Assembly (NCBI RefSeq): GCF_057098645.1
Contig: NZ_CM169472.1
Direction: 5' to 3' (one strand)
DNA length: 64,000 nt
Shown: positions 6,585 through 40,441 of the stretch, piece after piece
Position numbering within the stretch: position 1 is the first letter of the stretch
Layout: each line of letters opens with the position of its first letter
Made by a program: the position numbers and the translations under genes
The notes under the pieces: generated by a model
Seen by the model: the letters and a program-made list of their open reading frames with translations, nothing else
What the model was told of the DNA's origin: nothing
The model's database searches: none

Positions 6585-6660
6585 GCCCGGATAGCTCAGT
6601 CGGTAGAGCAGGGGATTGAAAATCCCCGTGTCCTTGGTTCGATTCCGAGTCCGGGCACCA
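6585..6660 (+). tRNA. pheV: tRNA-Phe (GAA anticodon)
   Basis: 76 nt GCCCGGATAGCTCAGTCGGTAGAGCAGGGGATTGAAAATCCCCGTGTCCTTGGTTCGATTCCGAGTCCGGGCACCA; cloverleaf with GAA anticodon in the loop; called pheV by synteny with yqgA. Confidence 0.95.
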
Positions 6661-27203: not shown

Positions 27204-27625
27204 ACTGTTATATGGCGAATGACAGCAAGGGGCATTTTGTTACGGCGAAAGAAGCAGCGAAGCACAACCGCCGGGACGTTTTGTGCTGTGTGTCCTGTGG
27301 ATGCCCGTTAACACTTCAGCGGGGCAATGACGGACAACAACCGTGGTTTGAACATGACCAGATGACTGTCGCTGAGAAAATCCTGCTGCGATGCACCTGG
27401 CTTGACCCGGCAGAGAAAGAGGCCCGTCGTTTGCATCTGCAGGGTATGACAGTTCTGGATTATACGGTGAAGGTGAGAAAGTGGTTTTGTGTGATGTGTG
27501 ACGAAGATTATGAAGGAGAAAAGTGCTGCCCGCGTTGTGGTACCGGGGTATACAGCAGGGCGTGGGGGCGGCAGGATGTGCCGTCGGAAGATGCCAGGGC
27601 TGATAATCCGTTACAGAGGTTGTAA
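27191..27625 (+). CDS. Double zinc-ribbon protein with CxxC...PWFEH motif, paralog 2 (overlaps paralog 1 by 13 bp)
   Basis: 144 aa from the ATG at 27191 (RBS gggagg); LCCVSCGCPLTLQRGNDGQQPWFEHDQ and WFCVMCDEDYEGEKCCPRCGTG; same motif order as paralog 1. Confidence 0.6.
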   Translation: MRILNCYMANDSKGHFVTAKEAAKHNRRDVLCCVSCGCPLTLQRGNDGQQPWFEHDQMTVAEKILLRCTWLDPAEKEARRLHLQGMTVLDYTVKVRKWFCVMCDEDYEGEKCCPRCGTGVYSRAWGRQDVPSEDARADNPLQRL

Positions 27626-29012
27626 TGGTTGCCTCTGGCGCAGTTTGCGGTGATGCCGTTCCCGGGAATGGATTGCCAGTGCGGGGACTGTGGAGCTTAA
27701 TTCCGGTGTTGGTGGCCTTTCCGTTGATTTTGAGCCAACAGCCCTCCTGTGACTGACAGGCTGCCTCGTCATTCCATACGTATCTTCAGGTGAACAGATG
27801 CATGTCTGAGCGTACTCACGCAGCCGGCCCGGCAACCGCGGTGGTACTACGCTGGCTGCGAGAAAATACAGAAAGCACCAGAATACGCTCTCCTGTTGCT
27901 GATCAATCAGGATCTCATGCACCTACCGGGATCTAGGGCTAGAACTGATGAAACCGATTCGCACCTGGCTGAGTTAATGCTACAGGCCAGGGCATCACTA
28001 CCCCCTGACGAGCACTGTACTGTGGTATGCAGTTACAGGGGGCGTGTGCAGCCACACCTGAAAGCAGTGAGTCGTTCACGGCATTCAAAAACACGTGCCT
28101 TTCGTTCGCCGTTCCTGTGATGGCCGGCATCATTTGCTAAGCCGTTACCGACGTTATTCCCTCCGGGACACGCCTCTGGTTGAGGCTTTGCCCGGAGCAA
28201 TCGAATGAAAATAAGTTAAGTCACCGAAAGGGAGGATGTAGTCAACCGGGGGAACAGTAATAAGCCGTCGTGCTTTTATCGTACAAGTGTGTTGCGTTTT
28301 GCACCGAAAATACGATAGAGGTCGTTTATGGATTCCGCAGGGAGTGCTGATTATTATTCACTGGCAGCAGACAGCGATGTGTGTGCAGGCATTCAGGGGG
28401 ATGTTGTCAGCAGAAGGGTGCGTATAGCAGATTGTTGTTATACATGGCGTATGAAGTATTACCAGTCATGCGGAGTAGTGTGGTGAGGGGCTGTATGAGA
28501 AATCGCCACCTTCTTGTCAGAGAGGGAACGCTACCATGAAAGTCAAAAGCGATAACGCAGACCGGTACGATCGGTAGGTAAAACTGTAGCGGTGTGCTGC
28601 CGCCGAGGTCAGAATAATCTGCGCGTTTTTACGCCAGCGCCACCGACGAACAGCAGGAGATTGAGGGGAATTTGGCGGCGATAAAGACGTAGAAGAGAAA
28701 AACGGGCAATTTGCCGCATGCCCACAGAATCAGTGAGATCGTTAGCGACAGCAAAATGATCGGCAGCCAGCGGCGGCCTGCAATATCGGGATGAAGGAGA
28801 TCCTACGATATCGATGCTGCACCTGATATGTACGATCAGTAAATAGAGTACGAAACAGCAAACACGACGATAATAACGCTGGCAGCGGTGCCTGTCAGGC
28901 AAACGCCCACACGCAATAAAATAAATCAACCATCGCAGGGCCGTGATCATCCGCATACACCGCTGATGACGCGTCTAAAAACGCGTCAATATGACTTCCC
29001 CGGAACATTACC

Positions 29013-30254
29013 TCATTTCAGGGTATGGAGAATTTTTAACATCGAGTTATCTATGGTCTGTTTGACTTTTTCGTAATAGATCGGTTCAGATAATGACGAA
29101 TCCCAGGTATGAATATCGTTCTTATTAAAAGGAATGCATTTCATGGCTACTGCCTTTAACTGTTTCCCTTTTTGCTCATACTCATTGATATCATTAATGG
29201 TAAATTTCAAACTCTCTTTTCTTGCTTCTGTTATTTCAGTTGGGCATACCAGCTTTATATCTCCTAAGGTAAATGTACTGACCCCGGTGATGAAAAATCT
29301 CTCGGGGATTTCTGTATAGTGCCGAGTATTCCAGATTAAGCCATTAAACATACTATGAGAATGAGTTTTATTTTCGATATAATACTGATGCGTTCTCCAG
29401 TCACTAATGCCTGAGAGACTCATTACCATATTAATGATCATATTTGGGATAGGGCGATACCACATACTGAATACAGTAATTACAACTGGTATGCATATTA
29501 AAACAACTATGAATCCAGTGAATTTATCACCATTTCTGCGCTCATTAAGATGTATGGCACCAGGCAGAATGCCAATAGTAACAATAGCTGCTGTTAAGGC
29601 AAGGAGCATTAGCATTTCAACCAAATCACTTGTCTCCTCACTAAAATCAAGTTGGGTAAGCAGAAATAACATAGGTAATATTTGAACGATCCCGGGAGTC
29701 ATAAATTGCAAGGGTAAAAAACATAACAATCCTGGTTTTCTTGGTAATTTCTCATAGTTATCAGATTTATGCCAACTAAATCTCTTTGTTTTAAATAGAT
29801 TAAAATAGGATACAAAATAACTAAAAGCAAGCATCAATACAAAACCGGTGATACTTATGGAATAACCATTCCATCCATAAAGATAGTAAATATAGTAGCC
29901 AACAATTATACTACAGCATATAAACAAGCTATTTAGATAACAAACAGTGGAAATTCGATGTGGTATGCTTGGATAATTTTTGAAATTATCTTCATGTAAT
30001 GTGTAAATGAGGATTAGAATAAAAGAGGAAATGAAAATTACTAAGCTAAACCCAGAAAACGATACTATTATAAAAACAAAAATGATACCTATGGCTGAAC
30101 TGAGGCTTACAGTATCAAAGAAAATATCTAATCTATCTATGTTTGACAGATAGAACCATATAACAGCCATTGTGCATCCAGTAATAAATGTAGATGAGGT
30201 TATTACTGAAATAATGAATTTTTTATTCAACAGCTTTATGACAGATTTATTCAT
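29013..30254 (-). CDS. AT-rich orphan gene: multi-pass membrane protein (about 8 TM) with a roughly 150 aa C-terminal soluble domain
   Basis: 413 aa ORF with strongly A/T-biased codons, unlike the surrounding DNA; hydrophobic helices through about aa 260; no recognisable catalytic motif. Confidence 0.65.
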   Translation of the reverse strand: MNKSVIKLLNKKFIISVITSSTFITGCTMAVIWFYLSNIDRLDIFFDTVSLSSAIGIIFVFIIVSFSGFSLVIFISSFILILIYTLHEDNFKNYPSIPHRISTVCYLNSLFICCSIIVGYYIYYLYGWNGYSISITGFVLMLAFSYFVSYFNLFKTKRFSWHKSDNYEKLPRKPGLLCFLPLQFMTPGIVQILPMLFLLTQLDFSEETSDLVEMLMLLALTAAIVTIGILPGAIHLNERRNGDKFTGFIVVLICIPVVITVFSMWYRPIPNMIINMVMSLSGISDWRTHQYYIENKTHSHSMFNGLIWNTRHYTEIPERFFITGVSTFTLGDIKLVCPTEITEARKESLKFTINDINEYEQKGKQLKAVAMKCIPFNKNDIHTWDSSLSEPIYYEKVKQTIDNSMLKILHTLK

Positions 30255-30884
30255 AATCCGAATTCCATACCTGATAAAATTCGTATTGTAGTGAGGACCG
30301 ATTTTTTGAGCAACTTATAACCATCGCTTAAAGCTACTTGCTACCATACATGCCGTTATCCCGAACCATAAAGCGCTTGGCAGTAACACCAACATCACAG
30401 ACAGATACTGCGGTTGCGCCAAATAAAAGAATGGCGGATAAGGTCGGCGGATTGCAACGTGATGCTGTGCTGTAGGATGACTTCTGCGGTCTCGTCCAGC
30501 GCCAGCCACTCCTGGCGGATTTTGTGTGGGGGCATGGTGTGTTCCTTTTTGTGTTGTTGGTTGCGTATAGTGCTTGTTGATGATGAAAACCGGTGTGAGA
30601 TATTTTTGCCAAAACAACTAACACTGATCAGTGTAGGTAACGAGCTTTTCAGACATAATATGGTGATGATTTACACTGGAAAAACAGGACGTAACACTGA
30701 ATAGCTCTGGAGACGATTTGCTTGAAGTGGCGTGCTATTTGTTGAAAGAAGAATTTCTGATGATACCTTATTTTAAAGGAGGCTAAAGGGAGAGGAGAGA
30801 GCCCTGTTGAAATCAACAGGACTTAATAGCTCCTCTCCGAAGGGCAAGGAGATCACCCGTGCGCCTGGTTAGGTGAAGAAGTAC

Positions 30885-32078
30885 TCAGCGTGGTTGCAGA
30901 CAGTTATCTTCTTTCCAGCCGTACAGCCACTCCATGCCGCGATAAAACTCTGCCTGCGATTTCCCTTTCCACAGCAGGTTACGAACCTGGCGTTCTACTC
31001 CCGCGGCGTGATAAACCCGTCCCATCTCACGGGTCGACCAGACAATACGCGCGGTGCGCGGAATACGTACCGACTCATACAGCGCAAAGGCTTGCGCCGC
31101 ATCACCCTCACACTGCGCCAGCGCCTTACCCAGCGTTACCGCGTCTTCCAGCGCCATACAGGCACCTTGCGCCATATATTGCGCCACTGGATGGGCTGCA
31201 TCGCCCACCAGCGTAATGCGGTTAGTGCCCCATTTCGCGACTGGTTCACGGTCGGCAGTTGACCAGCGTCGCCATGAAGTCGGTTTATCCAGCATCTGGC
31301 GCGGACGCGGGTGAATCCCCTCAAAGTAAGAGAGCACTTCCTCTTTACTGCCATCCTTCACGCCCCACTCTTCCTGCTGGCGGCTGTGGAATGTCACCAC
31401 CAGGTTATACTGCGTGCCGCCGCGCAAAGGGTAATGCACCAGGTGACAGTGCGGCCCCGCCCACAGTACCGGTGCGTTAATGCGCAAATCTTCCGGCATA
31501 TCGGCACAATCGATAACCGCACGGTAGACAACATGTCCGGTGACACGCGGCGCATCGCCCAATAAGCTCTGGCGCACCACTGACTTCACGCCGTCACAGC
31601 CAATCAGAATATCGCCGGTCCAGCTATTGCCGCGATCGTCAAACACGGTGACATCGTCTTCCGTCTCGCGAATATCCACGACGTTGGTGGAGGTGTGATA
31701 TTCCACGTCCGGATGCGTCAGTACCGCTTCCCACACCGAGGCGTGAATATCAACCCGGTGGATCACCGCGTAAGGACCGCCGAAATGGTCACGAAAGGCC
31801 TGCCCGGTTTCAATGCGCACCACTTCTTCGGCGTTCACCGCATCCATCATGGTAATGTGATCGGTAAACACCGCGCGCTGGCGGGCAACTTCGCCGACGC
31901 CGAGGCTGTCCAGCGCCGAAAACGCATTTGGCCCCAACTGGATGCCCGCGCCAATCTCACCGATCTCATGCGCCTTTTCCAGCAGCACCACTTTGATCCC
32001 CAGGCGGGCCAGTGACAATGCAGTTGCCGCACCGCCGATCCCGCCTCCCACAATTACTGCGCGTGTCACTTTCGTCAT
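30885..32078 (-). CDS. FAD-dependent aromatic monooxygenase, 3-hydroxybenzoate 6-hydroxylase-like (MhbM-like)
   Basis: 397 aa; N-terminal GGGIGG dinucleotide fold; DG and GD motifs of flavin hydroxylases; last gene of a gentisate-pathway operon. Confidence 0.8.
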   Translation of the reverse strand: MTKVTRAVIVGGGIGGAATALSLARLGIKVVLLEKAHEIGEIGAGIQLGPNAFSALDSLGVGEVARQRAVFTDHITMMDAVNAEEVVRIETGQAFRDHFGGPYAVIHRVDIHASVWEAVLTHPDVEYHTSTNVVDIRETEDDVTVFDDRGNSWTGDILIGCDGVKSVVRQSLLGDAPRVTGHVVYRAVIDCADMPEDLRINAPVLWAGPHCHLVHYPLRGGTQYNLVVTFHSRQQEEWGVKDGSKEEVLSYFEGIHPRPRQMLDKPTSWRRWSTADREPVAKWGTNRITLVGDAAHPVAQYMAQGACMALEDAVTLGKALAQCEGDAAQAFALYESVRIPRTARIVWSTREMGRVYHAAGVERQVRNLLWKGKSQAEFYRGMEWLYGWKEDNCLQPR

Positions 32079-32092
32079 TATAGTTCTCCTGG

Positions 32093-32740
32093 TCAGGCTG
32101 AAATTTTATCTTGTTGATTTTCTGGCGCTGCGGCAATGAACGCTGGCAGCTGTGTGCAGGCGTCGTACACCGCTTTGCAGCGTGGATACCCGCTCAAATC
32201 GCAGTTCATGCGTAGCGCGTTTGCCCACTGCGGGACAAGGCAGCAATCTGCCAGCGTCGGCGTCTCGCCCACACAAAATTGCCCCGACTGGTTCTGGCGC
32301 AACAGTTGTTCCACCGCGCTTAACCCTTGCTGGATCCAGTGCGCATACCAACGTTTTTTTTCTTCTTCACTGACGTTCAGTTCTTCGGTCAGGTAGCGCA
32401 GCACGCGCAAGTTATTTAATGGATGAATATCACAAGCGATGGCATAGACAATTTCCAGCACCTTGTTGCGGGCCGGTTCTTCCTGCGGCACCAGCGGAAC
32501 TTGCGGGTAGTGCCTCTCCAGCCAGTCAATAATCGCCAGCGATTGTCCGAGTGATTGGCCCTCGTCAGTCAGCAGCGTCGGCACCAGCCCGACCGGATTC
32601 ATCCGCCGATAGGCCAGTTCATTTTGCTGACCAATACGGATATTCACCCCTTCGGTCTGGTAATTAATGCCTTTCAGCGCCAGCGCAATGCGTACCCGGT
32701 ACGACGCTGAACTATTAAAAAAACTGTACAGCTTCATCAT
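32093..32740 (-). CDS. Glutathione-dependent maleylpyruvate isomerase (GST zeta-like; MhbI-like)
   Basis: 215 aa; GST N-terminal thioredoxin-like fold MKLYSFFNSSASYRVRIALALKGI... Confidence 0.8.
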   Translation of the reverse strand: MMKLYSFFNSSASYRVRIALALKGINYQTEGVNIRIGQQNELAYRRMNPVGLVPTLLTDEGQSLGQSLAIIDWLERHYPQVPLVPQEEPARNKVLEIVYAIACDIHPLNNLRVLRYLTEELNVSEEEKKRWYAHWIQQGLSAVEQLLRQNQSGQFCVGETPTLADCCLVPQWANALRMNCDLSGYPRCKAVYDACTQLPAFIAAAPENQQDKISA

Positions 32741-32745
32741 GCACC

Positions 32746-33447
32746 TCAGACAATCTTCACCGCGATAGGCGTTAAGCCCTCGACGTTGCCTGTGATCACA
32801 TCACCTTTCACTACCGGGCCAACCCCTTCCGGCGTACCGGTGAAGATCAGATCGCCCGGTTGCAGCTCAAAGAAGCCTGACAGATAGCTGATGGTTTCAT
32901 TCACCGACCAGATGAGATGGCGAATATCGCTGCGCTGATGATCTTCGCCGTTAACCTGTAACCAGATTGGCGCATTATCAATACCGCCGATATCGCGGGC
33001 TTTGTGCAGCGGCGCGATGGGCGCTGAGAGATCAAACGCTTTACCGATTTCCCACGGGCGGCCCATCTGGCGCATTTCCATTTGACGGTCACGCCGAGTC
33101 ATATCAAGACCCGTGGCATAACCCCAGACATATTCATGGGCGTGTTCCAGCGGGATATCGCTGCCTTTTTTACCAATCGCCACTACCAGTTCAATTTCGT
33201 AATGATAGTTATCGGTCTGCGCCGGATATGGCAGCGCCAGCGTTTCGCCAGCGGCGACCGGAATAACGGCATCTGCTGGTTTGCAGAAGAAGAAGGGTGG
33301 TTCACGATCCGGATCAAAGCCCATTTCGCGGGCGTGGGCGGCATAGTTACGCCCGACGCAGTAAACGCGACGCACGGGGAATTGTTTATCACTGCCAACA
33401 ACCGGTACGGTAACGGGCGCTTGTGGTTCGAATACATATTGAGTCAT
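32746..33447 (-). CDS. Fumarylpyruvate hydrolase (FAH family; MhbH-like)
   Basis: 233 aa fumarylacetoacetate-hydrolase-family protein. Confidence 0.8.
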
Positions 33448-33462
33448 TTTCTCTCTCCCAAA

Positions 33463-34491
33463 TTAATAACGCGCTTCGCGGAAAAGCCCCAGGGCTTCTT
33501 GTACCGGTCTGTCCGAAAAACTGAATAAAACGGTATCTTGCGTAGTCTGGAATGACACGCCGTGCCAGGTCGGCACCACAAAGATATCTTTTGCACTAAA
33601 GGTGAAGATTTCATTGCCGATGGTGACTTGTCCGCTACCTTCCACTACATGGTAGATAGTGCTGTCAGTGGTGCGCGCCACGCGGGAGGAGAACCCTTTC
33701 GGTAGCAGTTGCAGGAAAGCGCCCATCGACGGCATCGGATAGCCGCCGGTGACCGGGTTGACGTAGCGCATTTTGTAGCCATCCCATTCGTCGGCATCGC
33801 CCATGCGGGTTAAATCGTGCAGCACTTCGCGGCTGCGGTCATAACGATAGTTAAAGATCGGCGAGGAGTTCCCCGTCTGATGGCGCAGCGGCAACATATT
33901 GGCAGCGTAACGCGGCAGGTAATCGCCCTCTTTACGCGTTACCGGTTGTTGATCTTCCGGGTAATCTTCGGCAAAACCGCAGCCCAGAGTGTTCACTAAT
34001 GGCAGATCCAACCCATCGAGCCAGATAACCGGTTCGTCGCCAGGGTTGCCGTGATCGTGCCAGCGCCACTGCGGGGTCAGGATAAAATCGCCCTCATTCA
34101 TTGGCGTGCGTTCGCCGTCAACGGCGGTAAATGCCCCTTTGCCTTCAACAATAAAACGCAGCGCCGACTGGTTATGACGATGACTCGGTGCCACTTCGCC
34201 CGGCATGATCAGTTGCAAACCGGCATATAAAGTCGCGGTGATGGAAGACTGCCCTCGCAGCGCCGGGTTTTCCAGTACCAGCACGCGGCGCACCGCCTCT
34301 TTCGCGCCAATCAGGCTGCCGCTCTCCAGCAGCAGCGGGCGGATCTCCTGATAATTCCAGTACGCTGGCGCACAGTTAGCGTTGGGCGTTTTCGGCACCA
34401 GATGGTGCAGTGACTCCCACAGCGGGGTCAGGTTTTGCCCGGAAATATGCTGATAAAATTGTTCACGGCTATTTTGATTGTTATCAGTCAT
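33463..34491 (-). CDS. Gentisate 1,2-dioxygenase (bicupin; MhbD-like)
   Basis: 342 aa; cupin His motifs (...[14 protein letters not shown]..., ...WRWHDHGN...). Confidence 0.8.
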
Positions 34492-34502
34492 TGGGATGCT
34501 CC

Positions 34503-35861
34503 TTATTCGTTCACAACACCTGCGTGAGGCAGTGAGTCAGGGATAGAGGTCGACTGGCGAACCACGGTGATCAACAGGGTTAACATCACCGCACTGATCG
34601 CCGCAGGCACAGCGATAATGAAAAACAGGGTGTCGAAAGAGAAATTCATCGCCATCATCACGCCGCCAGACAGCGAGCCAACAATCGCGCCGCAGCGGCC
34701 CACGGCGTTTGACCAGCTCACGCCCGTGGCGCGACTTTGTGTTGGATAAAGTGTTGCGGTCAGCGCATTCAGCCCCACCTGCGATCCGCTGATGCCAATG
34801 CCGGTGCCGAAAATCGCCAGCGCCATCAGCCATAATCCATCCTGGCTTAAGCCAATCATCACGATGCATATAGCGCCTGTGGCATAGCTCAGCGCCAGTA
34901 CGCGGAAAGGATTGAACTTATCCATCAGCACGCCCAGCGCCAGCGCGCCCAACGTACCGCCAATCTGGAACGCGGCGGTAACCCAGGAGGCATGTTGCAG
35001 GTCGATGCCGCGATGGTTGAGCAGCGTTGGCATCCAGCTTGAGAGCAGGTAAATAATCAGCAAGCTCATAAAGAACACCACCCACAGCATCAACGTGATG
35101 GGTAACTGACGCCCCATAAACAGTTGACGAATGCTGCCTTTTGTAACGGAGGCTGATTCAATGAGATAAAACTGGGTATCGACATAACGCTCGCGGGTGA
35201 TGGCGCTGACGGTTTTCGCAATCACCGCCTGGGGTAGCTGGCGGCGCACTTGCCAGCGTGGCGATTCCGGCAGAACCACCAGCAGTGCAACAAACAGCAT
35301 CAGCGGTAATACGCCACCCAACACCAGGATCCCGTGCCAGCCAATCACCGGCACCAGCTGCGCGCTGACAATCCCGCCAACCGCCGAACCCAGGGTAAAG
35401 CCGCAAAACATCAGCGTCACCAGCGCGCCGCGGCGGCGGGCAGGCAGATATTCCGAGGTCATGGTGATGGTGTTCGGCATCGCGCCGCCCAGACCCAAGC
35501 CGGTGAGAAAGCGCAGGAAGACCAGAGTTTGCAGATCCGGAGAGAAAGCTGAGGCGAGGCTTAACGCGCCAAACAAAAAGACGCACAGCTCAATCACCCG
35601 CTTGCGACCAAAGCGATCGGACAACGGGCCACAAAGCAGTGCGCCTGCGGTTAACCCCAGCAGACCCGCGCCAAAAAGCGGGGCGAGATCGCCTGCGGTG
35701 AGTTGCCAGTGAGTGCGAATATCAGGGGCGATAAATCCGATAGCCGCGGTGTCAAAACCATCGAGCATTACCACCAGAAAACAGCAGATGATAACGCGCC
35801 ACTGCATCTTGCCGACCGGAGCAGCATCGATAAGTGCTTGTAGATCACGTCGTTGAGTCAT
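34503..35861 (-). CDS. MFS aromatic-acid transporter (3-hydroxybenzoate transporter MhbT-like)
   Basis: 452 aa, 12-TM MFS; first gene of the operon, divergent from a LysR regulator. Confidence 0.8.
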
Positions 35862-35987
35862 AGTAAATGCCTCAGTGCAGGTAAGGTAGATGTTTCTTTT
35901 GTTTTGTATATGTTGCGATATTGTGATTAAAGAGATGAAATGTACAATGGCATTTCGGGCAGAGAGATAACCTGGAGGTTATGGTAA

Positions 35988-36896
35988 ATGGCGAACTGGG
36001 CGCAAAAATTAAAACTACATCACCTTGAAATGCTGGTGGCGTTGGGTGAACAGGGCAATCTGACCCATGTCGCACGAATGATGAATATCACCCAACCTGC
36101 GCTTTCGAAATGGTTGTCACAACTCGAAGATGAGATTGGAATCACACTTTTTGAGCGGCACAGCAAAGGATTACGTCCGACTGAAGGCGGCAAATTGTTA
36201 TTGCAACATGCCCAACGGTTAATCAATGACATGGAGCGATCGCAACATGAACTGGCCCGTTTTAAACAAGGTGGACTGGTCGGCAGTCTGAAAATTGGCT
36301 GTTCTCCCGTCGCCACTGACTGCGTATCCCAGGCGATTTTGCATTTGCTTACGAAGATGCCAACTCTACACCTGAATATCGAAGAGAAGGTGATGACCCC
36401 ATTGCTGCAAGATCTGTTGGCAGGTTCTGTCGACGTGGTCGTTGGGCGAATTGGCGGTCGCGCCTTGCAACTGCCACTGAATTATCAGGTGCTGTACACC
36501 GAGCCAGTATGCTTTGTCGCCAGCCCTGAGCACCCACTGGCGAAATACGCCACCCTCAGTTGGAATGATCTTGCCAACTGGCGCTGGATCGTCTGGCCGA
36601 CGGGTACCCCCATTCGCATTAGTATTGATAATGCGCTGGTAGACCACGGCGTAATGCTGCCAGAAAACACGATTGAGTCGGCGTCGATGAACGTCAGTAC
36701 CAACCTGTTACAAAGCAGCGATATGATCTCTATTTTGTCATTACGCCTGGCGCAACGTTATGCCAGCCAGGGACAACTGGTGATACTCAACCTGCCAAAG
36801 ATAGAACAGAAAGGCAGCGTCGGTGTGTTCTGGCGCAATAACGAAACGCCTTCTTATGCTTTAAGTCAGTTTCTGCACTTTTTACAGCAGAATTAG
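35988..36896 (+). CDS. LysR-family transcriptional regulator (MhbR-like)
   Basis: 302 aa; N-terminal HTH (...LTHVARMMNITQPALSKWLSQLEDEIG...); divergent from the catabolic operon. Confidence 0.8.
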   Translation: MANWAQKLKLHHLEMLVALGEQGNLTHVARMMNITQPALSKWLSQLEDEIGITLFERHSKGLRPTEGGKLLLQHAQRLINDMERSQHELARFKQGGLVGSLKIGCSPVATDCVSQAILHLLTKMPTLHLNIEEKVMTPLLQDLLAGSVDVVVGRIGGRALQLPLNYQVLYTEPVCFVASPEHPLAKYATLSWNDLANWRWIVWPTGTPIRISIDNALVDHGVMLPENTIESASMNVSTNLLQSSDMISILSLRLAQRYASQGQLVILNLPKIEQKGSVGVFWRNNETPSYALSQFLHFLQQN

Positions 36897-37205
36897 TGTG
36901 CTGAACTGGGCATTCGCACGATGTTACTTCCCTGTAATTCAACGATGCGTAATTTTTCGGGGAATCGTGCACTGTGATAAGGCGTGATCTTTCATGGGGT
37001 GAAAATCCCACCAGGTGACTGTCGTTCCAGCCGGTAGCAGTCAAAGCAGTCGTGTGGGTAACAAAGCGGCTGATGTATTTGATGAAGAAGCTGTAGGTGT
37101 TTCAGTGAGTATACAGGTCATAATGTGAGTGAATCTGAGCAGGCCTCGAAAGAACCAATTGGAAGGACAACCCATTAGGAATTCCCAGAAAACAAGACAG
37201 GCATA

Positions 37206-37905
37206 GTGAGATGTGATCTAATTGATTGTGCTAGCAATTTCAAGGATATCACCACTATGCCTGCACGTTCATTATGCCAAAAATTCCTTAAAAACATACT
37301 GGCCACTTTGCATTTCTACCATCAAAAATCACTGATTGACGCAACAAATGCTGTAATAAATGGCGCTTCCCTCACGCTTAGCAGCATCGGGCGTCATTTA
37401 ACCAGACAGCATTAGTTAAAAACAAGATAAAGCGGGTGGATTGACCGTTGGGGAATTCTCAACTGAAAAATGATCTTCCCACCATTTTTCAGTTGGTTAC
37501 TCAAAAAAATACGCTGAGAATGTTCGTGTTGTTGTACGCCTTCGCCAGCAGTGGCAGGATGTTCAGGAGGAGTGTCGGCAGGCAGAGGTCGGATCAGGAG
37601 AGCGGCTGCGTAATGCCCTGCTGAATGTGGATTATACCACCAGTTTTGAACTGCCTTTTCGTCTGCTTTTAACCCGCACGTCACAGCTGATTGCTGTGCT
37701 TTGGGAAGAATGGGATATCAGCCAGAAAAATGTGGTGTTTAACGATAAACGCTTTGGTTGCGTGTATAGCCTGAAGGCCAGTCTTTCCGGCGTGCGGATA
37801 CATTCCGGTATCATCTGTCTCACCGTATTCGCCGGATGGTTGGGAATGAAATACATCATCGCCTTGGCAGCAGATTGCCCGGAAAGTGAAAGCGCTCCGT
37901 GAATG
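37206..37905 (+). pseudogene. IS4-family (IS10-like) transposase remnant, frameshifted and 3'-truncated
   Basis: Fragments ...SLTLSSIGRHLTRQH*, ...VKNKIKRVD*, ...IAVLWEEWDISQKN... in different frames resemble the IS10 transposase N-terminal region (TLTLTELGRNLPTKA..., NIKRIDRLLGN..., IVLVDWSDIREQKR as I recall it). Confidence 0.45.
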
Positions 37906-38082
37906 ACTTAAGTATGCGCTAGAGGAGGGATTACTGGTGACCGCACTGGACGGTCTGTTCTGGTCTGGTAGTCAGCGTATTGCGGAAGATATTCTGTGTC
38001 GTTACGGGGAAGTCATCTTCACAGGGATCTTCAGTCAGTTAGTATTACCGACATTCATTCACCAACTTACCGGAGATAATCG

Positions 38083-38412
38083 ATGTCAAAACCCCGATGG
38101 ACCATTGAACAGAAAAGGCAGCACGTTGCTGCCTGGCGCGCCAGTGGTCTTACACGTCAGCAATACTGTGAACTCAACGATATTCCCTTCACATCACTTC
38201 GCGAATGGCCGCAGGATGTCGCAAAAGCTGAACGCCGGGCAAATGAACCGACCGTTCTTCCCGTTCATATTGCGCCACCACTGCATGCTGATGTACCACA
38301 GCCCGTCACGAATGAGCCAGTCACGCTCTTCCTTCCCGGCGGAGTACGGATGTGCTGTCAGCCGTCACAACTTACCGATGTCTTCAGGGCGCTCAAATAT
38401 GCTCAGTCCTGA
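38083..38412 (+). CDS. IS66-family accessory protein TnpA (Orf1)
   Basis: 109 aa MSKPRWTIEQKRQHVAAWRASGLTRQQYCELNDIPFTSLREW... Confidence 0.75.
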   Translation: MSKPRWTIEQKRQHVAAWRASGLTRQQYCELNDIPFTSLREWPQDVAKAERRANEPTVLPVHIAPPLHADVPQPVTNEPVTLFLPGGVRMCCQPSQLTDVFRALKYAQS

Positions 38413-38791
38413 TAATGTCTTCATCGCGATTAAACCTGTTGACATGCGCCGGGGCATCGACACACTGACGCAGTATATACAGGATGAACTCCGGTCGACA
38501 TGGCATGAGGGAGCCGCCTTCGTCTTTGTTAACAAAGACCGTTCGCGTATCAAAGTTCTCCGGTGGGATAAACACGGGGTGTGGTTGTGTACCCGCCGTC
38601 TTCACAAAGGCAGCTTCCGCTGGCCACGTGCAAATGATGCTGCCTGGCACCTCACTCCCGACGAGTTTAACTGGCTGATTGCCGGTGTTGACTGGCAGCA
38701 GGTTAAGGGACATGGCCTGACGAAATGGGTCTGGCAAAATGAACCTGAACTGCGCCCTGAAAACACGCAAAACACACTGCTAACTCACTGA
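38399..38791 (+). CDS. IS66-family TnpB (IS66 Orf2-like)
   Basis: About 130 aa ...FIAIKPVDMRRGIDTLTQYIQDELRSTWHEGAAFVFVNKDRSRIKVLRWDKHGVWLCTRRLHKGSFRWP...; start overlaps the TnpA stop. Confidence 0.75.
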   Translation: MLSPDNVFIAIKPVDMRRGIDTLTQYIQDELRSTWHEGAAFVFVNKDRSRIKVLRWDKHGVWLCTRRLHKGSFRWPRANDAAWHLTPDEFNWLIAGVDWQQVKGHGLTKWVWQNEPELRPENTQNTLLTH

Positions 38792-38797
38792 AAAATA

Positions 38798-39830
38798 ATG
38801 AATATTCGTATCCGGAGTGGTATGCTCCCCTGTATGGATATCTCCGCTCTCAACACCACGAATGACATCGAAAAACTGCGTGCTATGGCACTTGCCATGG
38901 TACAAAAAGTCATGTCGGAGAATGCCGAAAAAGAGCGGGAATTACTGGAGAAAAGCCGGCGCATCCAGCTTCTGGAAGAAATGCTGAAACTGGTTCGTCA
39001 ACAGCGCTTCGGTAAAAAATGTGAAACGCTGGCTGGTATGCAACGCTCCCTGTTCGAAGAGGATGTTGATGTCGATATCGCCGAGCTCACCGCACATCTG
39101 GATAAACTGCTCCCGCAATCCCCTGAAGAAGACGAAAAAGCGTCCCGTTCACGCCCGATACGCAAACCCTTACCGGCTCATCTTCCACGGGTGGAAAAAA
39201 TTATCCAGCCGGACACTGACCATTGCCCTGAATGTGACGAGCCGCTGCACTATATCCGTGATGCGGTGAGTGAAAAGCTGGAGTATATTCCCGCTCACTT
39301 TGTGGTGAACTGTTATGTCCGTCCGCAATACAGTTGTCCCTGTTGCCAGAAGGTGTTCAGCGGTGAAATGCCGGCACATATCCTCCCGAAAAGTGCCGTT
39401 GAGCCATCAGTCATCGCACAGGTGATCATCAATAAATACGGTGAGCACCTGCCTCTGTATCGCCAGCAACAGGTCTTTGCCCGTTCAGATGTCGGACTGC
39501 CCGTCAGTTCGATGGCTGACATGGTTGGCGCGGCAGGGGCCGCATTATCCCCCCTCGCGGCGTTACTCCATCGCGAATTGATAAGCCGTCCGGTGGTGCA
39601 TGCAGATGAGACTACCCTGAAGATCCTGAACACGAAGAAAGGCGGTAAATCCTGCTCCGGTTATCTGTGGGCATACGTCAGTGGAGAAAGGACGGGACCG
39701 TCAGTTGTGTGCTTCGACTGCCGGACCGGACGTAGCCATGAGTATCCTGAAAACTGGCTTCAGGGCTGGGGCGGGACGCTGGTTGTCGACGGACATAAAG
39801 CTTACCGGACTCTGGCAAACAAAGTGCCGG
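38798..39830 (+). pseudogene. IS66-family transposase TnpC, N-terminal about 340 aa only (zinc finger + first two DDE motifs), 3' end replaced
   Basis: RFGKK, PLPAHLPR, CPECDEPL...CPCCQK, HLPLYRQ, VHADETT, GYLWAYV and VVDGHKAY motifs in IS66 order; similarity ends near aa 340; the conserved C-terminal GRKNW region is absent. Confidence 0.7.
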
Positions 39831-40441
39831 AGCTGGCGAATATCATCGGTCATCACGCGGGTATTGATGACAATACAGCGGCAAAAGCCATTGCCCATGC
39901 CATTCTCGGTGGTGTGACAGCAGCCCTTCAGGGCAACAGTGCGGCAGCAGGCGCAATTGGTGCGGGTACTGGTGAAGTGATCTCGTCAGCCATTGCGAAA
40001 AGCCTCTACCCGGACGTAGATCCGTCGAAACTGACAGAAGATCAGAAGCAAACCGTAAGCACGCTGGCAACGCTGTCAGCGGGTATGGCTGGCGGCATTG
40101 CCAGTGGCGATGTGGCTGGCACAGCTGCAGGGGCTGGTGTTGGGAAGAACATTGCTGAGAATAACTTGGTTGGTGGCACAGAGTCCGAGCAGAGCAAAGC
40201 TGCTCAGACGCATGGCGCAGATGTACTTTCCTGTAACGATGCTCCAGGCGGTGAAGCCTGTAAGCGAGGAGAAGCAGTCAATAAAGCGTATGCCGGAGCG
40301 TTGGCCACTGGTAGTGTAGCTCTCTTACCTGGCGGTGCTCAGGCCATGTGGGCTCTTGGCACAGGTGCAAATGCAGGAATTGGTTACATGGTAGATAGTT
40401 CAGTTGATCCTGAAAATGCAATCATTGCAGGATGGGTCTGA
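39831..40441 (+). other. Polymorphic-toxin-like fragment in frame with the truncated tnpC: Gly/Ala-rich pretoxin region with ENN motif (KNIAENN) plus about 90 aa glycine-zipper-like C-terminal piece; stop supplied by the IS629 terminal TGA
   Basis: ...SLYPDVDPSKLTEDQKQTVSTLATLSAGMAGGIASGDVAGTAAGAGVGKNIAENNLVGG... resembles CdiA pretoxin (PT-VENN) regions; the ORF ends exactly at the IS629 boundary (40439-40441). Confidence 0.45.

Follow-up and report, generated by a model that had tools for sequence, protein, structure and literature searches.

What occupies positions 27626-29012 of the window (the whole 64,000-nt stretch of Escherichia coli DNA analyzed here): a gene that has escaped notice, or the debris of a junction between two parts of a genomic island? 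The stretch lies ~21 kb inside a tRNA-Phe pathogenicity island, whose tRNA-Phe gene (6585-6660) is followed by an integrase ORF. To its left are a YagK/YfjJ (inovirus Gp2-like) gene and two genes with DUF7828 and Zn_ribbon_11 domains, and to its right are a 33% GC gene for a 413-aa protein and then the 3-hydroxybenzoate/gentisate operon. The region 27400-29200 shows 99.8% identity to O145:H28, O103:H2, and a few other genomes, and the complete stretch is carried by 63 to 66 of 5,426 complete E. coli genomes. RefSeq places no annotation under 27626-29012 in the near-identical genomes.

A sequence-only reading had described the stretch as GC-rich and devoid of a long open frame. At 52.1%, its GC content is close to that of the window as a whole (51.6%) and below that of the zinc-ribbon genes (53.7%), so the first description did not hold; a contrast exists only with the AT-rich gene at 29013-30254 (32.9% GC). 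The second was borne out: none of the six frames stays free of stops for more than 121 codons, while shuffles of the same sequence average 117 (SD, 28) for their longest such run, and 39% of them equal or beat the stretch. The short ORFs quoted in that reading do exist: the plus-strand ORF 27790-27936, which contains MSERTHAAGPATAVVLRWLRENTES, and a hydrophobic 41-aa ORF on the minus strand at 28629-28754.

As summarized in Table 1, we resolved the stretch into six pieces, which together make up ordinary genomic debris. It is the seam that joins a conserved module (YfjJ/Gp2, the two DUF7828 zinc-ribbon genes, and UCP030791) to a cargo block made up of the AT-rich membrane-protein gene and the 3-hydroxybenzoate/gentisate operon. 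We consider it highly probable (about 87%) that 27626-29012 is a nonfunctional junction zone in a composite, IS-riddled island at the tRNA-Phe gene.

Table 1. Features of the stretch 27626-29012 (window coordinates)
Positions	Strand	Feature	Basis
27626-27799		Conserved intergenic spacer, 3' of the second DUF7828/Zn_ribbon_11 gene	Homology and colinearity
27800-28140	+	UCP030791 (PF27752) pseudogene, 5'-truncated	Nucleotide identity, tblastn, synteny
28141-28424		284 bp without detectable relative, apart from ~25 bp of pseudogene 3' flank at the start	Searches
28161-28197	+	Hairpin CUCCGGG...CCCGGAG, stable, terminator-like, no U tract	Folding
28425-28502	+	Relic of a lost island gene: upstream region, ATG (28495), and first codons	Nucleotide match to locus L024
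28503-28898	-	Aromatic amino-acid (Trp/Tyr) permease, internal fragment, aa 63-197 of 386	Nucleotide identity, tblastn, Pfam
28886-29011	+	Solo right end of an IS66-family element: terminal inverted repeat and ~100 subterminal nt	Nucleotide identity, terminus

The spacer and the UCP030791 remnant

Using megablast, we found that the first ~172 nt of the stretch are widespread (94-96% identity in ~2,000 E. coli genomes), with the match ending near 27797, beyond which those genomes diverge from the window. The spacer is colinear with the one at 917 to ~1078 of locus L018, which carries an intact version of the module, and the ATG ORF at 27625-27756 sits within it and is not the start of a UCP030791 gene.

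To the right of the spacer, a relaxed search with 27960-28170 yielded a 79%-identical copy in strain GF60, where an intact 172-aa gene has this sequence as its 3' end. The remnant, over codons ~61-173, is 78% identical at the nucleotide level to the intact gene at L018 1310-1672 and 76% identical to the GF60 gene, and tblastn of family members against it gave E values down to 7e-25. Its frame-corrected translation showed 56% identity to the intact protein P0005 over aa 27-172 (E 2e-47). Nucleotide homology to the UCP030791 gene starts at ~27809, corresponding to ~residue 61, and runs to the end of the gene; the portion of the P0005 alignment ahead of that residue lies in the spacer and probably reflects chance. 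A full-length pseudogene spanning 27625-28140 from the ATG at 27625 was also considered and rejected, since 27626-27784 aligns with the L018 spacer and not with the 5' part of the gene; the weak resemblance of residues 26-54 in that frame is probably coincidental as well.

When the window was compared with the intact locus, identity was 82.7% through the zinc-ribbon genes and the spacer, after which ~250-270 bp are missing in the window: the spacer has lost its final ~70 bp, and the gene its start codon along with ~60 codons. In the remaining part, the reading frame shifts twice, by +1 near 27892 and by -1 near 28039, ahead of the native TAA (28138-28140) common to the intact gene; MSERTHAAGPATAVVLRWLRENTES is the in-frame part that precedes the first frameshift. 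Members of the family (165 hits, 166-182 aa) occur in E. coli, E. albertii, E. marmotae, and Salmonella. Similarity to these UCP030791/PF27752 members was evident in the remnant, but an intact ORF of ~166-182 aa with the N-terminus MQITEAL..IRRF.QQAVDHWP was absent. With its start and ~60 codons deleted and two frameshifts, the remnant was therefore filed as a UCP030791 pseudogene. The label PF27752 = UCP030791 was taken from precomputed annotations of homologues, for which some sources give "inovirus Gp2 family protein," and a paper naming UCP030791 was not found in the literature searched. The intact GF60 protein itself had no match in the Pfam set scanned, which contains no PF27752 model.

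The position of the remnant agrees with this assignment. In the intact module (NTOD01000051.1, encoding P0005; GF60, WP_073268951.1), the UCP030791 gene lies directly 3' of two zinc-ribbon genes, and the remnant follows its two zinc-ribbon genes just as in L018 to L021. Both versions also have the motifs VVLRWLRE, LLLI(S/N)QDL, HCTVVC.YR, and PVMAGII in common. Contigs with P0005 show the order zinc-ribbon, zinc-ribbon, UCP030791, 200-aa protein, 733-aa helicase, and Rpn; unlike these, the window is without the 200-aa and helicase genes 3' of the UCP030791 position.

Could the remnant still work as a shortened gene, for example, from an internal start at GTG 27790? The 48-aa ORF at 27790-27936 does retain the family motif VVLRWLRE; however, the +1 shift near 27892 takes it out of the frame used by the family, and it terminates 15 codons later. 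Its product would be missing both the conserved N-terminal ~60 and the C-terminal ~80 residues of the 166- to 182-aa family, and the upstream spacer, the expected site of a promoter-proximal region, is partly deleted. We therefore regard a shortened working gene as very improbable and retain the pseudogene assignment.

A further candidate overlapping the remnant, a conserved noncoding element or small ORF at 27974-28156, had come from a comparison with locus L002, to which this segment shows ~65% identity, nearly gapless and with conservation equal in all frames. It was rejected, since the intermediate GF60 gene reveals the segment to be the 3' end of the UCP030791 gene.

Regarding the intact module itself (L018 96-5700; also L019 to L021), its 200-aa protein has no Pfam hit, its 733-aa helicase gives weak ankyrin and faint UvrD_C hits, and its Rpn protein is of the Transposase_31 type. 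The arrangement looks like a candidate conflict or defense cassette.

The 284-bp segment and the breakpoint at 28425

The segment at 28141-28424 is present only in ~67 to 70 E. coli genomes, at an identity of at least 96%, and no relative of it was detected in plasmids, phages, Rfam, six-frame Pfam, or species-representative genomes (k-mer scan). Neither the 200-aa nor the helicase gene of the intact module was found in 28141-28502. The same region was considered as an ilvB/ilvN relic (28143-28502), an idea prompted by an ilvN paralogue pseudogene beside a UCP030791 relic in L002, and this was unsupported: the match to IlvN reached no better than E 0.034, and IlvB had no match.

The ilvN paralogue pseudogene (L002 5730-6001; also in L012, L013, and L017) is 90% identical at the nucleotide level to K-12 ilvN and adjoins the UCP030791 relic and a DeoR-rbsK-fucP block. 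This arrangement, or at least its ilvN-side part, occurs in 1,190 genomes (at least 80% of a 651-nt query) in several chromosomal contexts.

The sequence-only reading had allowed that the stretch might hide a small protein or RNA, and no homologue accounts for the 284-bp segment. A gene for a small RNA or micro-protein found only in this variant of the island, perhaps including the hairpin, would fit some of the data. The hairpin lies ~20 nt 3' of the pseudogene stop, an 80-nt fold containing it reaches -26.7 kcal/mol (z -2.74; 2 of 200 shuffles fold as well), and short ORFs of 46-52 aa are present. However, the best Rfam hits were eukaryotic miRNA/lncRNA models with E values of 0.45 to 2.6, far below gathering scores, and 28141-28502 as a whole folds no better than shuffles on either strand (z, -1.2 and -1.0). 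Promoter- and terminator-like sites in 27400-29200 occur at or below the shuffle frequency, with no promoter-like site within 28141-28424. In addition, disruption is tolerated: positions 28131 and 28335 are occupied by IS66-family insertions in other strains, and 20 genomes with the same right-hand block have an alternative junction at 28425 and are wholly without the segment. Because all copies of the stretch 27626-29012 are at least 96% identical, conservation cannot separate function from recent common descent. The suggestion of a hidden small protein or RNA gained no support from Rfam, the promoter and terminator counts, or folding. We judge it very unlikely that the segment, with or without the hairpin, is an island-specific small RNA or micro-protein gene; we favor the reading as leftover flank. 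The hairpin is a terminator-like structure of putative function.

On the right, the segment gives way to a relic of a different gene. Positions 28425-28502 show 75% identity over ~80 nt to L024 4001-4083 (strain LH50-c), a match that is weak but specific, and the matched sequence lies just upstream of, and includes the start of, an island gene for a 149-aa hypothetical protein. That protein gave a subthreshold match to CaiF_GrlA (E 0.0067).

The block to the right of 28425 occurs in roughly 90 genomes, and this position is a lineage breakpoint, left of which 20 complete genomes and one metagenomic contig carry other sequence. Joined exactly at 28425 in these is a truncated cbtA followed by DUF5983, DUF957, and DUF4942, next to yghD. 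In the same 20 genomes (L023 4527-7900; L022 1-1073), the island ends beside yghD and the gsp genes, and the permease fragment, the AT-rich gene, and the gentisate operon are unchanged. The metagenomic contig, L022 (JAIJJM010000061.1), was deposited as part of a "Collinsella sp." MAG; its 99% identity to the E. coli island over window positions 28425-37810 points to a binning error.

The cbtA block bears on the claim that the stretch holds pseudogene remnants of CP4-like island genes, for which antirestriction, RadC-like, and toxin-antitoxin families had been named. Since the block abuts 28425 in 20 genomes, such genes have been neighbors of the right-hand block, and this is the point in favor of deriving the stretch from genes of the classical CP4 end module (antirestriction, RadC, CbtA/CbeA). 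However, the window left of 28425 is unrelated to the cbtA block, and a six-frame Pfam scan of 27600-29100 with E values up to 1 matched none of these genes, the only hit being Trp_Tyr_perm. An end-module origin is accordingly the least credible of the alternatives that we weighed, and the named families dropped out. What stood of the claim is the UCP030791 pseudogene, which is typical of this island type; over half of the stretch is other debris, namely, the permease fragment, the IS66-family end, and the 284 bp at 28141-28424.

The permease fragment and the IS66-family end

The minus strand of 28503-28898 showed 86% nucleotide identity to the gene for WP_041165489.1 on plasmid pKP187 of Klebsiella variicola and to ~20 other Klebsiella plasmid genes. 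In tblastn, the permease matched the window with 66% identity (E 1e-43), and the Pfam profile Trp_Tyr_perm (PF03222) scored 34.3 bits against a cutoff of 22, although the match spans only positions 82-206 of the 393 in the profile. The fragment retains the transmembrane stretch LSLT.SLILWA.GKLP, and the hydrophobic minus-strand peptide noticed in the sequence-only reading corresponds to two transmembrane segments of the fragment. Unlike the Klebsiella gene, the window copy is no complete transporter ORF: it covers roughly one-third of the gene, is truncated on both sides, and is interrupted by three in-frame stops and by compensating frameshifts, with a frame-shifted middle. Neither the rest of the gene nor its pKP187 neighbors (alpha-glucosidase, aminotransferase, and MFS genes) were found in the flanks, and a k-mer scan of species-representative genomes matched the permease only in the apparently misbinned E. 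coli contig.

The right margin of the stretch, 28886-29011, is 75-81% identical to sequences that follow IS66-family tnpC genes in over 800 genomes of E. coli. All copies share one sharp terminus (...ATTAC), past which they diverge. For comparison, we used a complete element on plasmid pCFSAN004181P (L005 1339-4111), which splits an IS110-family gene and has the left repeat GTAATGTTCCGGGG..., the right repeat (reverse complement) GTAATATTCCGGCG..., and the 8-bp target duplication TCTTCAGG. Terminal inverted repeats of the IS66 family begin with 5'-GTAA. In the window, the minus strand at 29011 reads GTAATGTTCCGGGG, 14 nt identical to the left repeat of the plasmid element; in both, the terminal repeat begins GTAAT.TTCCGG, with 79-81% identity over the last ~110-126 nt and the same end base. 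While the complete element has tnpA, tnpB, tnpC, and a ~360-nt 3' region, the repeat motif occurs only once in the window, with nothing tnpC-like to its left. Lacking tnpA, tnpB, tnpC, and the left end, the IS66-family end of the window is therefore immobile. The match of CGTATCTTCAGG at 27778-27789 to the target duplication of the IS element in L005 was dismissed as a coincidence, because the window is colinear there with the native spacer of L002 and L018.

Origin of the seam and its surroundings

The pieces suggest how the seam may have formed. The UCP030791 gene is dead: a deletion of ~250-270 bp took away its 5' part, and the two frameshifts came afterwards. In the right third, a 396-bp permease piece is fused to the final 126 bp of an IS66-family element, the 78-bp upstream-region relic of another island gene adjoins the permease piece, and 28141-28424 would be leftover flank. 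Successive IS66-family insertions, deletions, and recombination could have assembled these parts, in an order that we infer. Probably none of the pieces is now expressed as a functional product.

For annotation, the stretch matters in that ~65 complete E. coli genomes (O145:H28, O103:H2, and others) are blank or carry spurious "hypothetical proteins" here, and UCP030791 pseudogene, permease gene fragment, and IS66-family end would be better labels. It marks the seam of an island module with gentisate-pathway cargo, a site repeatedly hit by IS66-family elements, and no open biological question hinges on it.

Several observations were made in the vicinity of the seam. A single base separates the IS66-family tip at 29011 from the stop codon (TGA, 29013-29015) of the minus-strand AT-rich gene 29013-30254, and the C-terminus of the encoded protein may therefore have been reshaped by the IS66-family insertion. 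This 413-aa protein belongs to no Pfam family, and PGAP calls it as 385 aa.

In O145 strain RM9872 (L015 16014-17552), the same block, consisting of the module, the stretch 27626-29012, the gentisate operon, and nleB/nleE/espL2, ends at an integrase and a tRNA-Phe gene, beside dicD and dsbD; in the window, by contrast, tRNA-Phe and the integrase lie ~21 kb to the left of the stretch. Two long overlapping ORFs at window positions 22175-24593, left of an Hha-like gene, are what we take to be istA/istB of the IS21 type; RM9872 carries an IS3-family element at this place (L001 2033-3210), and the window strain therefore differs from the best database match.

Other IS66-family sequences were also noted. 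In O157:H7 and related genomes (L004 3815-4111; L006), the last ~150 nt of the right end occur in tandem, with two successive terminal repeats. At window positions 37937-40441, IS66-family tnpA/tnpB frames are followed by a 547-aa ORF with a tnpC-like start, which continues into Gly/Ala-rich sequence unlike transposase and is probably a chimera produced by rearrangement.
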